From a virus, in the IMG/VR virus record IMGVR_UViG_3300045988_116135: DNA of 60,409 bases; one strand, 5' to 3'. This document shows, in pieces, positions 641-53,000 of this stretch. Positions within the stretch are counted from its first letter, which is position 1; each line of letters starts with the position of its first letter. A program made the position numbers and the translations under genes. The notes beneath the pieces are model-generated. The model was not told the origin of the DNA. It saw only the letters and a program-made list of their open reading frames with translations, and searched no databases.

Positions 641-1402
641 TCCAATATCGCTTAATAACCCACTGAATAGATGAGCGTAATACAGAGGTTGTGTTTCTTT
701 GGGATTGTTAGGGTTTACTTGGTTCTCCCCATATTTAAGCCCGGCAGCTGTCAAGGATTTGAACTTCTTCATGCCCTTGCTGGATTGTCGTTGCAAGGTC
801 GTTAACAACCCCTTTGCGGCCATTCTTGCGTTGAATGCCTGTGCGGATATTTTTAATCCGTTAATTCCCAGTAGTTCAGTGGCTGACAATAATTGATCCT
901 TGGATTCCGTATAGTCCGGGGTAGGCAAACCCAATGGATCGAGTATCTGCTTTGCCATGAGCAATTTAGAGCTATCATTTAAGTTTAGGAATTTTGCCGC
1001 CCACGAAGCCGCCTTCATTTTGTCGGATAGCGATAACGTTTGTTCCGTTGGTTTGTGAAATACCTTCCTATACACCTCGAAAACTGGTCTTACTTTTCTC
1101 GCTATAAAGAACTCCATACATGAAACGGTAAGTTTATAGTCAATCTTATTGTTTCCTCCCCAGCTTGTTTCATCTTGCTTGCCATTTTGGGCAAGCGTCT
1201 TGTAATCAACCCCCTCAATAAATTGTTCATTTGAAGTCAATGCTCTAACGGCCTTCCCTTTTTCAGAATAGACTAATGGCCAAACTTCGTCAAGATTGAT
1301 TGGAAACTCATCATCAGATTGAGCTAATTTTAAAACAGCCTTGAAATAACGTTTTATTTCATTCTCGCTACTATTCTTTGACAATATTAATTTTGATTCC
1401 AT
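635..1402 (-). CDS. Antirepressor-like protein (AntA-like N-terminal module plus KilAC/ANT-like C-terminal module)
   Basis: The N-terminal ~110 aa are paralogous to ORF 1422..2000 (EIKRYFKAVLKL..FPINLDEVWPLVY..MEFFIARKVRPVFEVYRKVFH). The C-terminus reads LSATELLGINGLKISAQAFNARMAAKGLL. Confidence 0.55.
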   Translation of the reverse strand: MESKLILSKNSSENEIKRYFKAVLKLAQSDDEFPINLDEVWPLVYSEKGKAVRALTSNEQFIEGVDYKTLAQNGKQDETSWGGNNKIDYKLTVSCMEFFIARKVRPVFEVYRKVFHKPTEQTLSLSDKMKAASWAAKFLNLNDSSKLLMAKQILDPLGLPTPDYTESKDQLLSATELLGINGLKISAQAFNARMAAKGLLTTLQRQSSKGMKKFKSLTAAGLKYGENQVNPNNPKETQPLYYAHLFSGLLSDIGL

Positions 1403-1421
1403 AATAACCTGATTTTAAAAT

Positions 1422-2000
1422 TTAAATGTTGAGTGATCTCTTGATCTCTTCCGTGATCCTTTTGGTTATACGCTCTTGATTCCATTCGTGCCATTCGGTA
1501 TACAGACCTTTTCCTACGAGATAAAAGAAACATGAGTTCTTTAGATCGGTTTCTTGCTGAGAGGTGATCTTGGCCCATTTAAGACGGTTCTCTAACATTG
1601 AGATATCCTTCTTTAGTTCTTGGATCTTTTTGCTTTCCAATGGGATTGATGCGTTTTTAGCTACAGTCGTATGAAAGACTTTCCGGTATACCTCGAACAC
1701 CGGGCGTATTTTCCGGGCGATAAAAAATTCCATGCAGGGCACGGATAGTCGATACTCGATCTTTGGCCTTCCTCCTTTTGGGTTTTGCGGATTTTGCCGC
1801 AAAACTTGATAGTCAATATCTTGCATGAATGTTTTCTGCAAGACATCTACGGCATCCGATCTCTTGTTGTACACTAAAGGATATACCTCGTCAAGGTTCA
1901 CGGGGAACTCTTGATCTGATTTTGACAGCTTGAGTACTGCCATGAAGTAGCGTCTGATTTCTACGGTGCTACTTTCTCTTGTAAGAATTGTTTGCTTCAT
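1422..2000 (-). CDS. Antirepressor-like paralog with a different C-terminal module
   Basis: The N-terminus is paralogous to 635..1402. The C-terminal 55 aa (ITSQQETDLKNSCFFYLVGKGLYTEWHEWNQERITKRITEEIKR) match the C-terminus of 6987..7436. Confidence 0.55.
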   Translation of the reverse strand: MKQTILTRESSTVEIRRYFMAVLKLSKSDQEFPVNLDEVYPLVYNKRSDAVDVLQKTFMQDIDYQVLRQNPQNPKGGRPKIEYRLSVPCMEFFIARKIRPVFEVYRKVFHTTVAKNASIPLESKKIQELKKDISMLENRLKWAKITSQQETDLKNSCFFYLVGKGLYTEWHEWNQERITKRITEEIKRSLNI

Positions 2001-4271: not shown

Positions 4272-4613
4272 TTATTTATCGAATTTGATTTGGTACAGGT
4301 GGAAACAATTCTCGTGCAGGTTAACAAATTCCTTACGTGGAGGGAATATCTGAGCTACCTGCATGCTGTCCGGCATAAACTTGTATCGTATCTCTTTCAG
4401 TTCGTAATATCCGAGCGTGTGATTGGCTGATACGGACAGATGCCATTCACCCATTTCCTTATTTATGAGAATATCCTTTCCTTTGTAGGTGAACATACCC
4501 GTCTCGTAGACTCCGTACTCATCCTCGATATGCTCATATATGAAATCGATCGGAAGCATCGTAAATGCCATTGGTAATGGCCGTTTATATTTCTTCAATT
4601 CCTCATTTGTCAT
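4272..4613 (-). CDS. Hypothetical protein (113 aa)
   Basis: ATG ORF, 3 nt from the next gene. Confidence 0.6.
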   Translation of the reverse strand: MTNEELKKYKRPLPMAFTMLPIDFIYEHIEDEYGVYETGMFTYKGKDILINKEMGEWHLSVSANHTLGYYELKEIRYKFMPDSMQVAQIFPPRKEFVNLHENCFHLYQIKFDK

Positions 4614-4657: not shown

Positions 4658-5401
4658 TCAACTATGATGAATGTCTTTCTTTAAATTGCTGTCGAATATT
4701 TTAATACACTCAAACAGGTATTTTGCCACTGTTGGATTTACCGCATTGCCGATACTTCCAACTCTGTGTGTCCAATTGGGAAACCCATCATCATTTCTAA
4801 CAATGCTATGCGCTGGGATTTCAAGAATCCTTTTTGCGCAAGTATATCCGACACTCGTATCTGATGTCCACTCTTTAAATATCGAGTTAAAGTATCCATC
4901 GTTGCAAATGTCGCTTTGTAATCCGATTTTATTGGAGTAGGCAATAAGGTAAAGTCTTTCCCTTTTATGTGGGTATCCAAAAGCGTAGTTTGATATACAT
5001 TGCCATTCCGCATTATACCCGATTTGGGAAAGGTCGCATAGGACCTGTTCGAGACCGGAAATAACGAGAGCTGGCGAGTTTTCAATGATGACGTATTTAG
5101 GTCTAACCTCCCGTACAATTCTATACATCTCACTCCATAAGCCGGACCGTTTCCCTTTAATACCTTCACGTTTTCCGGCAATACTGATGTCTTGACACGG
5201 AAATCCTCCACTAATGATGTCCACATATCCGGGGTTTGACAATTCTTTAATGTCCTCATATTGCTTTGTATTTGGAAAATGTTTTTTTAATATACTCCTC
5301 TGGAATGGCTCAATCTCACAGTTCCACAAAGTATCTATACCAACCCATTCCGCTCCGGTCTCAAATCCGCCCACGCCAGAAAATAATGATCCATGTGTCA
5401 T
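4658..5401 (-). CDS. dcm: DNA (cytosine-5)-methyltransferase, short phage type (247 aa)
   Basis: Motifs in order: FSGVGG (I), GGFPCQDIS (IV), RSGLW, IIENSPAL (VI), GYNAEWQ..GYPHKRERLYLIA (VIII), GFPNWT (IX), IGNAVNP (X). The start is set at MTHGSLFSG, which forms an ATGA overlap with the upstream gene. Confidence 0.9.
   Translation of the reverse strand: MTHGSLFSGVGGFETGAEWVGIDTLWNCEIEPFQRSILKKHFPNTKQYEDIKELSNPGYVDIISGGFPCQDISIAGKREGIKGKRSGLWSEMYRIVREVRPKYVIIENSPALVISGLEQVLCDLSQIGYNAEWQCISNYAFGYPHKRERLYLIAYSNKIGLQSDICNDGYFNSIFKEWTSDTSVGYTCAKRILEIPAHSIVRNDDGFPNWTHRVGSIGNAVNPTVAKYLFECIKIFDSNLKKDIHHS
4738..5259 (-). CDS. Embedded same-strand alternative-frame ORF (173 aa) inside dcm; possible overprinted gene
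   Basis: Longest same-strand alternative-frame ORF in the window. Ordered motifs: FRVKTS, SSLKTRQLSLF, FPKSGIMRNGNVYQ, LLPTPIKSD, RVSDIL, MMMGFPIGHTEL. These resemble a phage/ICE protein family, recalled from memory and not searched. Confidence 0.4.
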   Translation of the reverse strand: MRTLKNCQTPDMWTSLVEDFRVKTSVLPENVKVLKGNGPAYGVRCIELYGRLDLNTSSLKTRQLSLFPVSNRSYATFPKSGIMRNGNVYQTTLLDTHIKGKDFTLLPTPIKSDYKATFATMDTLTRYLKSGHQIRVSDILAQKGFLKSQRIALLEMMMGFPIGHTELEVSAMR

Positions 5402-5634
5402 ATCTCCTTGGTTTTGGCAAACACCACACTCTCGTAATCTGGCCTCAAATGGGCCATGCAAGCAGATGAGTATTCGCAGAATCTCGCACCCTCGTCCCGG
5501 AAGACGCATCCCCTGCACGGGATCTTGTTCTGACCGTTATAATACGGCCTGTACTTTTCCACGATAATTTTCATGTCTCCTACCAACACGATCAAACCGG
5601 TAGGGGTGTTTCTCAATCTCTCTGTTATTTCCAT
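5398..5634 (-). CDS. Hypothetical Cys-containing protein (78 aa)
   Basis: ATG ORF with a stop/start ATGA overlap with dcm. Confidence 0.6.
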   Translation of the reverse strand: MEITERLRNTPTGLIVLVGDMKIIVEKYRPYYNGQNKIPCRGCVFRDEGARFCEYSSACMAHLRPDYESVVFAKTKEI

Positions 5635-50068: not shown

Positions 50069-53000
50069 ATGGAAGCTATTCGCATAGGAAACGACATCAA
50101 TATAGAATGGACCATCTTCCGGGACGGTAAGCCCGAGTCTTTGGATGGCAAGAACATTAGCGTCTTCATGACCAATGGCTATAAGAAGATGGCGGTAAAA
50201 GACCTCCACTTCCGGGATAACGTGATACGATTCACTTACTTAGGTAAAGACCAAGATTATAACGGCGTCTATACGCTGACCCTTATCGAGAACAAAGGGA
50301 AGGAGGGCATGTACACCGTAGACGCTTGCGATGCGTTCCGTCTTATCCCACGGTCGTGCTCCGTAGGTGGAGATACGGGATGCGGCAGCGTCAAGGTGAC
50401 AACGGTAAAGCTAACGGGAGATATATCCGTTCCTGCCGTAGGGACCGGAGATTATGAAAGTATGACCAATAAACCACGGATCAACGGGGTTGAGTTGGTC
50501 GGGGATAAGTCCCTAGAGGAGTTAGGGATACCCATTCTGCCTGATAATATCGTAACCGATGCCGATTACACGCATACGGATAACAACTTGACGGACGCTC
50601 TTTTGGAAAAGCTCGACGGATTGAGTAATTACGATGATACGGCGTTAAGAGAGGCTTTAACCTCCGAGATCAGCAGGGCGAAGGAGGTAGAGGGGGATCT
50701 TGACACGGCCATAAGGAAAGTGGCTTCCGATCTGTCCACGTTTATAACGGGAGATCCGGACGCGGACAATGTCATCAACAGATGGCAGGAGGTGGTGGAG
50801 TTCTTGTCCGGTATGACAGAGGATAAGGATATGGCCGGAGTGTTGCTGGATTTGAAAAAACAAATACTTGCGGAGGTCACGAGTATCTTGTCAGGTTATT
50901 ACACGTCCGGACAGATTGACGATAGGTTTGTCGAGAAGATCAAAGGGAAGGGACTTAGCACAAACGACCTTACGGATGAGCTGTTATCTAAGATCAACGG
51001 CTTATCCAACTATGATGATGAATGGGTCAGGAGTGAGATCGCCTCTATCAAGGCGGATATCGACACGTTATTGGGTGATGGAGCGAGCGACGCTATAGAT
51101 ACCTTCCATGAGATCGAGCTTTTTTTGCAGGGTATTACGGATAAGGAAACCCTAACCGGTCTTCTCAATGACTTGCGTGCGGAGATAACGGCTTTGATCC
51201 CAACCAAGACATCCCAATTAACAAATGACGATCACATCGTAAAGGACGCTAATTACGTCCATACGGACAATAATTATACTGACGAAGATAAGGGTAAGTT
51301 GGATGGATTGGATAATTACGACGATACGGATATCCGGAATCTGGTCACCGGTCTAAGGACGGACGTTGATAAGTTAAAGCCCGTTGTCACCTCCACCCCG
51401 TCTAGCGGTCAGATAACCATAACGCCGGACAAGGCCAAAAACGAAGATCCGGACGTGTCGATAACGCTGAAGACCAAGGGGGACAAGGATAAGTCGCTGA
51501 TGGCCGACGGCAAGTACCGCAAGCTGCCCGTGTACGGCAGGAACCTGTTGCTGGGATCGGGGAAGGAAATCTCTTCTACCAGTTATTGGGTTACCGATTG
51601 GTATACAGCTGAAAATATTCCAGAATCAAAACAAGTAACGTTTACTATATGGGCGGATCTAGGATCTGATGTTACTTCTGTCTGGTTATATAAAGCTGGA
51701 GGTTCGGTTTTTTTAGCCTCAATCGCTAGGGATAAGTTTGTTGATGGGAAAGCTTCCGTTACGTTTACATGGGAATCTGGGGGGATTGCTGAAAATGTAT
51801 TAAAGTTGTATCAAAAATCACCAGACAATAACACAAAAGGAAATATAGCTATACATAAAGTGAAGCTCGAGTACGGCGACATCTCCACCGAGTGGACCCC
51901 CGCTTGGGAGGACATCCCGGATATAGAGGGGCGGTACGCCTACGGTGTAGAGTGGGACATGGCATCGTCAAGCCCGGACGGGAAGCGTGTGGGTAATATG
52001 CAACTACATCGGGAGTTGCCGGTGCAGAGTAAGATGAGAAGGTGTCTTTTGGATAGAGATGGTGGAGTTAAAGAATATTTGGATAATGAGCTTTCATGGG
52101 GTGGAAGCTATTTGGATTATGCCGTTATGACAGAGATACCTGAACATTGGTATAAATTGTATTTTAATGGCACTAAATTTAGGAAGATGTTGTCCGAAAT
52201 TCCATTACCTGGGTATAAACATGTAGATAAGTTCTATATCTCAACATATGAAGCCAGAATGTATAGAACCGATAATTTATTATGTTCGGCGGCTGGAGCT
52301 AGTAAATCAAGTGATCCTAATTCAATTAATTTTAGAGGTGGCGACAATACCGCTGAATGGGATGATACCTACCGTTCCCTACTCGGCCGTCCCGTCACCA
52401 ACCTCACCCGAGACCAATTCCGGCAAGCCGCGAGGAAACGTGGCAGCGGGTGGGAGATGTACACCTACAACGCCCACAAGACCCTGTTCTGGCTATTCGC
52501 CGTCGAGTACGCCACGCTGGACAGCCAGAAGCCTTTCAACGCCCAGAAGGACGCTAACGGTTTCGCCCAAGGTGGCCTAGGTCCGGGACCAACGCAAATG
52601 ACGGATTGGACTAACTTCAATAACGCCAACCCCCTTATCCCATGCGGCTATACCAACGAGTTTGGGAACGGCTCGGGAGAGAAGGCATATGTGGTGAAGA
52701 ACGCTTCCGGCGGTACTCACGCCACGTTGATGGCTAACAGGTATCGTGGTATAGAGACTCCGTTCGGCCATATATGGAAATATACTGACGGGGCCAATAT
52801 ACAGGTCACCACGGGCGATGCGGGATTATCCATATTATGGACTACCGATGACCCGTCGAATTTCAGCGACACCTCTTACACCGGCTATGATAAGAAGGGC
52901 AATATCTGCCGTACAAACGGTTATGCCAAGAAGATGTTGCTTGGGGAAGATGGCGATATAGTGTCCACGGAGGTCGGCGGTAGCTCCTCTACCTACTGGT

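Follow-up and report, generated by a model that had tools for sequence, protein, structure and literature searches.

A short C5-cytosine methyltransferase gene of a Bacteroides phage and the gene nested in its +1 frame: an overlapping pair that likely encodes a two-subunit enzyme

A stretch of viral DNA of 60,409 nucleotides (IMG/VR record IMGVR_UViG_3300045988_116135, called here the window) contains a short dcm gene, whose product is called alpha, and, wholly inside it on the same strand, an open reading frame (ORF) in the +1 frame, whose product is called beta. The two form a genuine overlapping gene pair, a conclusion that is strongly supported. Both frames are under purifying selection: selection on alpha dominates over motifs IV-VIII, and selection on beta over the segment that goes from motif VIII to motif X. 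We consider it likely that the pair encodes a two-subunit C5-cytosine DNA methyltransferase, a single stretch of DNA being read in two frames. A nested alpha/beta architecture is not new, since M.EcoHK31I provides a precedent that dates from 1995. A preliminary description of the locus had proposed possible dual coding, which is now supported by homologues, by the conservation of the open frame and by the suppression of synonymous-site variation. The coordinates and frames that it gave for alpha and for the nested ORF are correct (both lie on the minus strand), and all of its motif overprints hold on direct reading of the DNA.

The alpha gene and the ORF nested in it

In C5-methyltransferases, the large domain comprises motifs I-VIII and motif X, the variable region and motif IX being left to the small domain (PMC3404938). 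The alpha protein has 247 amino acids (aa) from its ATG (positions 4658..5401, minus strand) and begins MTHGSLFSGVGG. It matches Pfam PF00145 with an E value of 3e-41 and 142.3 bits (cutoff 22) and phrog_363 over its full length (E 3e-63). The motifs FSGVGG (I), GGFPCQDIS (IV), ENSPAL (VI), GYNAEWQ..HKRERLYLIAY (VIII), and GNAV (X) can be read in its translation, and both C69, the cysteine of the catalytic PCQ, and E107, the glutamate of ENV, are invariant in the alignments. A profile score above the curated threshold and the catalytic residues thus identify alpha as a C5-methyltransferase. The PF00145 match is confined to alpha residues 2-162, which correspond to profile positions 2-168 of 324, and no small domain, with its variable region and motif IX, is found within the alpha chain between motifs VIII and X. 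The alpha segment between motif VIII and pre-X cannot be aligned among family members and its length is highly variable. In the long forms, alpha consists there of a filler rich in R, A, and G, and beta of repeated (L/W)PTPxxxD modules; for instance, WPTP/LPTP modules are repeated in the database protein P0177 and at the loci L011 and L120, where the alpha frame is such a filler.

Beta is an ATG-initiated ORF of 173 aa (4738..5259, minus strand), whose start codon lies 142 nt 3' of that of alpha. It shares the strand of the alpha ORF that encloses it but not the frame, a position of the M.EcoHK31I type. As the preliminary description had noticed, no other alternative-frame ORF nested on the same strand in the window is as long, the runner-up being one of 110 codons at 52248..52580. 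Its translation includes SGIMR, DFTLLPTPIK, and IALLEMMMGFPIGHTELEVSAMR. The overprints read on the DNA (alpha/beta) are GGFPCQDIS/FRVKTS, IIENSPAL/SSLKTRQLS, GYNAEWQ/SGIMRNG, and GFPNWT/MGFPIGHT, and GGGTTTCCC is translated as GFP in both frames. The beta family consensus over alpha motif IV is EDSxAKTS. The features of the pair are the following, with the evidence in brackets (pLDDT, predicted local distance difference test):

4658..5401, minus strand: alpha gene, probable large subunit of a C5-cytosine methyltransferase, with motifs I, IV, VI, VIII, and X (PF00145, phrog_363, AlphaFold, Foldseek)
5366..5383, minus strand: alpha motif I, FSGVGG, upstream of beta and single-coding (translation; ordinary single-frame diversity)
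5183..5209, minus strand: alpha motif IV, GGFPCQDIS, overprinted by beta EDFRVKTS at 5185..5208 (sequence; low third-position diversity)
4733..4765, minus strand: alpha motif X, RVGSIGNAVNP, with the beta stop codon (4738..4740) inside it (G218 invariant and N219 nearly so; pLDDT 90-93 at residues 220-240; third-position diversity 0.25-0.32 beyond the beta stop)
4738..5259, minus strand: beta ORF, putative small subunit, 173 aa, +1 frame (open in 56/56 relatives; 0/2000 shuffles open; phrog_1008; 2,135 clusters)
5059..5091, minus strand: beta SSLKTRQLSLF, over alpha motif VI, IIENSPAL, at 5066..5083 (sequence; SSLRTSQLSLF of phage Che9d, in the same frame relation)
4990..5031, minus strand: beta FPKSGIMRNGNVYQ, predicted beta-hairpin with G81 and G86 invariant, over alpha motif VIII at 4937..5020 (alignment A1; model strands 81-84 and 87-90)
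4921..4947, minus strand: beta LLPTPIKSD, the first 'PTP' module, with 2-5 repeats in long family members (P107, T108, and P109 nearly invariant)
4765..4932, minus strand: beta residues 110-165, predicted folded helical module, encoded by the DNA of the alpha linker, alpha residues ~157-212 (pLDDT, diversity, shuffles)
4759..4803, minus strand: beta LLEMMMGFPIGHTEL, motif-IX-like element (family consensus ExxMGFPxGWTxL)

Selection on both frames

The synonymous codons of alpha were permuted 2000 times in a way that keeps both the protein and the codon usage exact. In these shuffles, the beta span contains a mean of 7.55 stops, with a minimum of 3 and never 0. The longest open +1 run observed has 182 codons, versus a mean of 65 and a maximum of 134 in the shuffles.

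With the alpha protein as the query, 80 viral loci were fetched, yielding 56 distinct intact alpha genes (69-100% aa identity). Since the loci were fetched by the alpha protein, the sampling is independent of beta. In each of the 56 relatives, 176-182 codons of the +1 frame are free of stops and include an ATG-initiated ORF of 173-177 aa. Nucleotide diversity was calculated per alpha codon position on the codon alignment of the 56 genes, a measure that ignores kinship among them; the values for codon positions 1/2/3 are:

Alpha codons 1-47, before the beta ATG: 0.100/0.047/0.285
Alpha codons 48-100, inside beta: 0.083/0.040/0.171
Alpha codons 101-160, inside beta: 0.095/0.037/0.112
Alpha codons 161-221, inside beta: 0.158/0.074/0.102
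Alpha codons 222-247, after the beta stop: 0.122/0.089/0.254

The suppression of variation at the alpha wobble position begins and ends with the boundaries of beta, that is, the synonymous variation of dcm is reduced precisely across 4738..5259. At alpha codons 57-79 (motif IV region), third-position diversity is as low as 0.03-0.09, and at alpha codons 161-221 the most variable position is the first, which is the wobble position of beta. Variation is less restricted at alpha codons 73-95, which match beta residues ~26-48, a stretch that varies within the family and that the model shows as disordered. Two marks of dual coding are present: a frame that is open in independently sampled relatives and a synonymous suppression confined to the overlap.

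Shuffles preserving one frame were then scored in the other, as follows (observed versus shuffled):

Alpha-preserving shuffle, beta N-terminal part (residues 1-103): 134 bits versus 81.5 ± 8.8 (z 6)
Alpha-preserving shuffle, beta C-terminal part (residues 104-173): 100.7 bits versus 18.4 ± 9.1 (z 9)
Beta-preserving shuffle, alpha residues 48-156: 166 bits versus 55.6 ± 11.8 (z 9.4)
Beta-preserving shuffle, alpha residues 157-221: 38 bits versus 15 ± 6.5 (z 3.5)

In the beta-preserving shuffles the alpha frame gains a mean of 4.6 stops and is open in 0.2% only. The scores obtained both ways indicate that both frames are selected.

The beta family and its distribution

The protein family that had been proposed for the 173-aa product does exist, and significant homologues are found. 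Beta matches phrog_1008 ('DNA methyltransferase') with an E value of 4.9e-14, residues 10-119 aligning to profile positions 36-148, and this is the sole library family that captures beta-frame products. It is clustering-derived and generically labelled, and its members are not marked as alternative-frame products of C5-methyltransferase genes. A word-indexed search retrieves 197 database proteins that match beta, and an exhaustive search retrieves 2,135 representatives of 50%-identity clusters at E<=1e-3. When the 71 members of alignment A1 were scanned with Pfam, PF00145 was detected in only four, which are presumed to be alpha/beta hybrids.

According to tblastn, beta underlies the annotated methyltransferase genes of 35 mycobacteriophages, as well as those of phages of Bacteroides, Porphyromonas, Lactobacillus, Streptomyces, and Sulfitobacter and of cyanophages; six dcm genes annotated on plasmids overlie it as well. 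For instance, mycobacteriophage Che9d has an open ORF of 198 aa in the +1 frame of gp80 that contains the series EDFPARTS..SSLRTSQLSLF..AGSMRNG..WHTPTTND..EWLMGFPPNWT. Beta is likewise in the +1 frame of the methyltransferase gene in Bacteroides phage BF1-TP2 (gp18) and at the loci L011 and L012.

A wider sample of 80 genomic loci was picked by alpha similarity (34-70% identity). It covers Bacteroidota, Actinomycetota, Pseudomonadota, Chloroflexota, Planctomycetota, Acidobacteriota, and other phyla, including Gemmatimonadota and Desulfobacterota, together with Chlamydiales and Patescibacteria. In 79 of these 80 loci, a match to the beta hidden Markov model (HMM) lies in the +1 frame over alpha, and the frame is open: 269 stops would be expected in the beta spans of the 79 loci from synonymous shuffling of alpha, and none is observed. 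For loci with less than 55% GC, the mean probability of an open beta span is ~0.003. Low-GC loci keep 144-216 open codons, with up to 375 at a GC of 0.46. The preliminary description had held that proteins of this family are normally separate from, or C-terminal to, cytosine methyltransferases. This has to be reversed, since they are nested in the +1 frame in 79/80 loci and in Che9d gp80, BF1-TP2 gp18, L011, and L012; the separate or tail-extended forms, those of locus L121 and Streptomyces phage Heather, are exceptions.

The beta start is an ATG in 64 of the 80 loci, and some start codon is present in 75, at or before the conserved N-terminal motif of beta. At several loci the sequence is ATGAATG, which places the alpha and beta starts 4 nt apart. 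This is the case at L011:1087-2175, L012:305-1045, and Solirubrobacterales loci such as L120, with two ORFs of ~360 aa that are nearly co-extensive. The conserved 'MSWxYxQ' with which database beta proteins begin is what motif I (MNELALFAG) gives when read in the +1 frame. P0177 (357 aa, four PTP modules) and P0172 (240 aa), which appear as standalone proteins, were considered as an independent family and rejected, because the frame one base earlier encodes an entire methyltransferase with motifs I through X. The whole clade has 8,000 or more alpha proteins and, for beta, 2,135 clusters. It is found both in chromosomes of more than 10 phyla and in phages whose hosts are Bacteroides, Mycobacterium, Streptomyces, Lactobacillus, and cyanobacteria.

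The two-subunit reading and its alternatives

If the pair encodes a two-subunit enzyme, frame 0 would give alpha, the large catalytic domain with the S-adenosylmethionine-binding and catalytic motifs I-VIII and the motif X helix, in which a flexible linker would take the place where one-chain enzymes hold the small domain (between motifs VIII and X). The +1 frame, from its own ATG at 5259, would give beta. The latter would consist of an N-terminal part, mostly disordered and conserved, that overlaps alpha motifs IV-VIII, a middle part with a hairpin (SGxMRNG) followed by the LLPTP module, and a C-terminal part folded as a helical module that ends in the motif-IX-like E..MGFPxGxT. Beta would bind alpha and supply the missing small domain, i.e., motif IX and probably the target-recognition elements, and the complex would methylate the phage DNA, protecting it from host restriction. 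By analogy with M.EcoHK31I, we infer that beta is translated, that a heterodimer is formed in which both chains are needed, and that beta has a role in DNA recognition.

The structure models are consistent with this division. In the AlphaFold model of alpha (121-sequence alignment), pLDDT is 85-97 at residues 1-160 and ~90 at residues 220-240, and falls below 50 at residues 160-170 and 179-217. The model superposes on the large domains of M.HhaI (2uz4) and M.HaeIII (1dct) with E values of 2e-14 to 4e-13 (in Foldseek, 2.4e-14 for M.HhaI), the alignments covering 168-196 columns, which are about two thirds of the 247 residues of alpha and roughly its confident part. The order of motifs I, IV, VI, VIII, and X is also shared with these two enzymes. 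However, their small domain is inserted in frame between motif VIII and motif X, whereas the alpha of the window has there a low-confidence linker and the motif-IX-like element is on the +1 product. In the beta model (71-sequence alignment), a hairpin is predicted at residues 81-90 (SGIMRNGNVY) and a helical module at residues 110-165 with pLDDT 84-95, which is encoded by the DNA of the low-confidence linker of alpha.

The best precedent is M.EcoHK31I (E. coli HK31, YGGCCR), which is composed of an alpha and a beta chain, the latter encoded inside alpha in another frame; it was reported in 1995 by Lee, Kam & Shaw (PMC2836561; PMC3404938). Its alpha chain has motifs I-VIII together with X, its beta chain has motif IX, and methyltransferase activity demands the association of both (PMC2836561; PMC3404938). 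The first 42 residues of its beta chain are dispensable in vitro, and internal Met codons are able to initiate (PMC2836561). The likeness of the window pair to this enzyme is one of published layout: beta is wholly contained in alpha and read in a different frame, alpha holds motifs I-VIII as well as X, and residues 1-43 of beta are predicted to be disordered, the N-terminal part of the M.EcoHK31I beta being partly dispensable. The chains described in 1995 reportedly have 176 aa (beta) and 309 aa (alpha), versus 173 aa and a shorter 247 aa, respectively, in the window. There are also differences. The window pair belongs to a temperate-type Bacteroides phage, with no adjacent restriction enzyme seen, and the VIII-X segment of its alpha is unconserved and predicted to be disordered, the conserved folded sequence being in beta. 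A blastn search with a gammaproteobacterial gene of the alpha family gave no match in 5,426 E. coli genomes.

M.AquI (Agmenellum quadruplicatum, CYCGRG) is the other natural two-chain C5-methyltransferase cited, and its catalytic motifs I-VIII and its motif IX are likewise on different chains (PMC3404938). Unlike the window pair, it is split end to end, with motifs I-VIII in alpha and the distal variable region plus motifs IX-X in beta (PMC3404938), whereas the window has a nested beta and an alpha that keeps motif X. Within the family, the layout of gp35/gp36 of Streptomyces phage Heather is M.AquI-like, but with a frame overlap of ~395 nt.

With respect to motif IX, the preliminary description had assigned the full motif set to the dcm frame. 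Motifs I, IV, VI, VIII, and X stand; motif IX probably does not, since the alpha GFPNWT is probably not the functional one and a canonical-looking LLEMMMGFPIGHTEL lies in the beta frame. Judged from sequence patterns, the functional motif IX is probably this beta element, because the pattern of motif IX is matched by the family consensus ExxMGFPxGWT, at a C-terminus that is nearly invariant, and because of one weak hhalign match.

Several observations weigh against the two-subunit interpretation. That hhalign match is the sole one of beta to M.HhaI (motif IX region 268-303; E 0.0078, probability 5%). The published target-recognition domain of M.EcoHK31I is in alpha, whereas the recognition elements proposed here would be in beta. 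Residues 1-43 of beta are predicted to be disordered yet are strongly conserved. Nothing relevant was detected by Pfam or NCBIfam in beta or in seven long or diverse members of its family, the beta family profile against the PDB sequences gave only chance-level matches to glycolipid-transfer proteins (E ~0.2), and Foldseek of the beta model against the PDB gave nothing at E<=0.001. The lack of a Foldseek match is to be expected if beta folds only on alpha, and thus it neither supports nor refutes the two-subunit model. Finally, the diversity values carry the disregard of kinship mentioned above.

Three alternatives have to be weighed. The strict coupling of beta to this methyltransferase clade across phyla (79/80) makes it improbable that beta, although real and selected, is no subunit at all and instead regulates alpha, acts in anti-defence or is a DNA-binding protein that arose by overprinting. 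Such a role would fit a protein that alone resembles no solved structure, that has no curated family, whose N-terminal third is predicted to be disordered and that, at the loci L103, L104, and L106, is fused to an extra C-terminal region of ~220 aa. However, the motif-IX-like C-terminus is nearly invariant, the Heather beta-frame ORF runs into the enzyme motif X (GNGVVP), and, according to the models, alpha would be devoid of a folded small domain precisely where beta is folded. The characterised M.EcoHK31I also points to a subunit (PMC2836561).

Alternatively, the +1 frame could be a recoded segment, reached by programmed ribosomal frameshifting or transcriptional slippage after motif VIII, giving one chain with perhaps a back-shift for motif X. 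The order alpha I-VIII, beta LLPTP..MGFPxGxT, alpha GNAV is in fact that of a canonical one-chain C5-methyltransferase, and the database hybrids P0005, P0014, P0050, and P0112 pass from the alpha to the beta frame. The junctions of the hybrids, however, vary (after I, before IV, after IV, after VI), which fits sporadic indels or assembly errors and not a single programmed site. The +1 frame is also open and constrained over ~100 codons that lie upstream of any shift point of use, reaching in some lineages the alpha start (ATGAATG), it has its own start codon at a conserved place in most loci, and the recovery of motif X would take two opposite shifts. Since, in addition, M.EcoHK31I functions as two separately expressed chains (PMC2836561), recoding is very improbable.

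A third possibility, that there is no second protein and that codon bias, a nucleotide-level constraint (RNA structure, methylation sites) or a 'shadow' of the alpha motifs accounts for the open +1 frame and the low synonymous variation, is strongly disfavoured and hardly credible: shuffled alpha genes still reach 81-126 bits against the beta family HMMs, because the conserved alpha motifs fix two of three bases, and an open +1 frame is not rare at high GC (mean P 0.11 at GC >0.65), but the observed score is 6-10 standard deviations above shuffles of exact codon usage, the C-terminal part of beta is conserved where alpha is unalignable, low-GC loci stay open (P ~0.003), the suppression starts and stops with beta, and the excess of position 1 over position 3 in codons 161-221 is a signature of coding in the other frame and not of RNA structure.

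If the two-subunit interpretation is extended from the window to its relatives, the whole clade of short 'mini-dcm' C5-methyltransferases would be obligately two-subunit, with the small domain (a recognition region of PTP modules plus motif IX) overprinted in the +1 frame and the target-recognition domain ('TRD') of alpha reduced to a passive linker set by beta. We regard this broader proposal as evenly balanced. If true, these pairs would rank with the oldest and most widely distributed of the long same-strand gene overlaps of prokaryotes.

Natural variants, genomic context and significance

Different variants of the pair were observed among the homologous loci. At L001:2856-3534 (ENA OLIV22 scaffold_209, homologous to window positions 4738..5401), a single G-to-A change converts alpha W133 (TGG) into a stop (TGA) and, in beta, Gly86 into Asp. 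The residue hit in beta is the invariant Gly86 of SGxMRNG, and this allele corresponds to the P0013 cluster, with 65 member sequences. At L004:2856-3596 and L005 (GCA_022733095.1), alpha is intact (246 aa), yet the recorded gene is the 173-aa beta only, and a 160-nt 'intergenic' gap appears where the alpha N-terminus lies; the gene callers evidently chose the beta frame. In Mycobacterium phage Llama gp74/gp75 (L009:1002-1761; also in Ochi17, OfUltron, and Jinglebell), the frame changes after motif VI with respect to Che9d gp80, apparently through a small indel. Alpha is there split over two annotated 'DNA methylase' genes and the C-terminal half of beta is in a third frame (ORF 1370..1741). 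The locus may be a pseudogene or a working three-piece enzyme. A frame switch between alpha and beta at differing points is also seen in the hybrid proteins P0005, P0014, P0050, P0112, P0054, P0117, and P0098, the last being 'DNA cytosine methyltransferase [Chryseobacterium arthrosphaerae]' in NCBI nr. These hybrids are probably indel alleles or assembly errors, which stay open because both frames are open.

Other variants concern the extent of each chain. In Streptomyces phage Heather gp35/gp36 (L010:1059-2112), alpha (gp35) ends directly after motif VIII, and the +1 ORF contains the N-terminal motifs of beta, PTP modules, LLPTPTVAD, EWLMGLEPGWVT (motif IX), and GNGVVP (motif X). This ORF is open from 1165 and gp36 is annotated from 1528, a start that is probably too far downstream. 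At L121:2076-2555 (a Rhodospirillales metagenome-assembled genome, MAG), the only such locus of the 80, a beta-like protein with PTP modules and EWLMGFPKGWT is encoded by a separate downstream gene and alpha has a short linker, which may be the ancestral or a resolved state. At L103:1832-2887, L104, and L106 (Chitinophagaceae and Flavobacteriales MAGs), the beta ORF extends ~640 nt past the alpha stop, and the added C-terminal region of ~220 aa has no Pfam match. The variants of Heather, L121, and L103/L104/L106 support a modular two-subunit reading.

Around the locus, the 2.2-13.2 kb region has 92% identity to Bacteroides phage BF1-TP2, and an IMG/VR viral contig carries a nearly identical gene. 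An upstream ORF of 78 aa (5398..5634, minus strand), which begins MEITERLRNTPTG, is conserved in phage BF1-TP2. Its end overlaps the alpha ATG by 4 nt (ATGA, at 5401), an overlap that suggests translational coupling into alpha. The GTG at 5518, given as the alpha start in the program-made ORF list, is probably not the real one. The gene directly downstream of alpha (4272..4613, minus strand) encodes a DUF7694 protein (E 6e-15), and a Pfam scan of nine further neighbouring ORFs gave no match. Given the orphan phage methyltransferase, a putative anti-restriction locus is plausible.

In bacteria and phages, long overlapping genes on one strand are a rare and contested class. The pair of the window has unusually clean comparative support, together with a biochemical precedent. 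Gene callers record one of the two ORFs and never the pair, and frameshifted hybrids are labelled 'DNA cytosine methyltransferase'. This one-ORF annotation and the lack of a Pfam or NCBIfam model for beta imply that many phage and prophage methyltransferases are probably half-annotated. If the M.EcoHK31I precedent applies, alpha expressed alone would probably have weak or no activity. A literature search for surveys of nested beta ORFs in C5-methyltransferases, with most subscription journals and REBASE outside its scope, yielded only papers on the engineering and complementation of M.EcoHK31I, and the breadth of the nested pair and its one-ORF annotation go beyond these papers. One base change can strike both subunits, as in the L001 allele, and a variable number of PTP modules in beta drags along the length of the alpha linker, which makes these genes a tractable system for the evolution of two-frame constraint. 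The nested layout is far more widespread than annotation shows.

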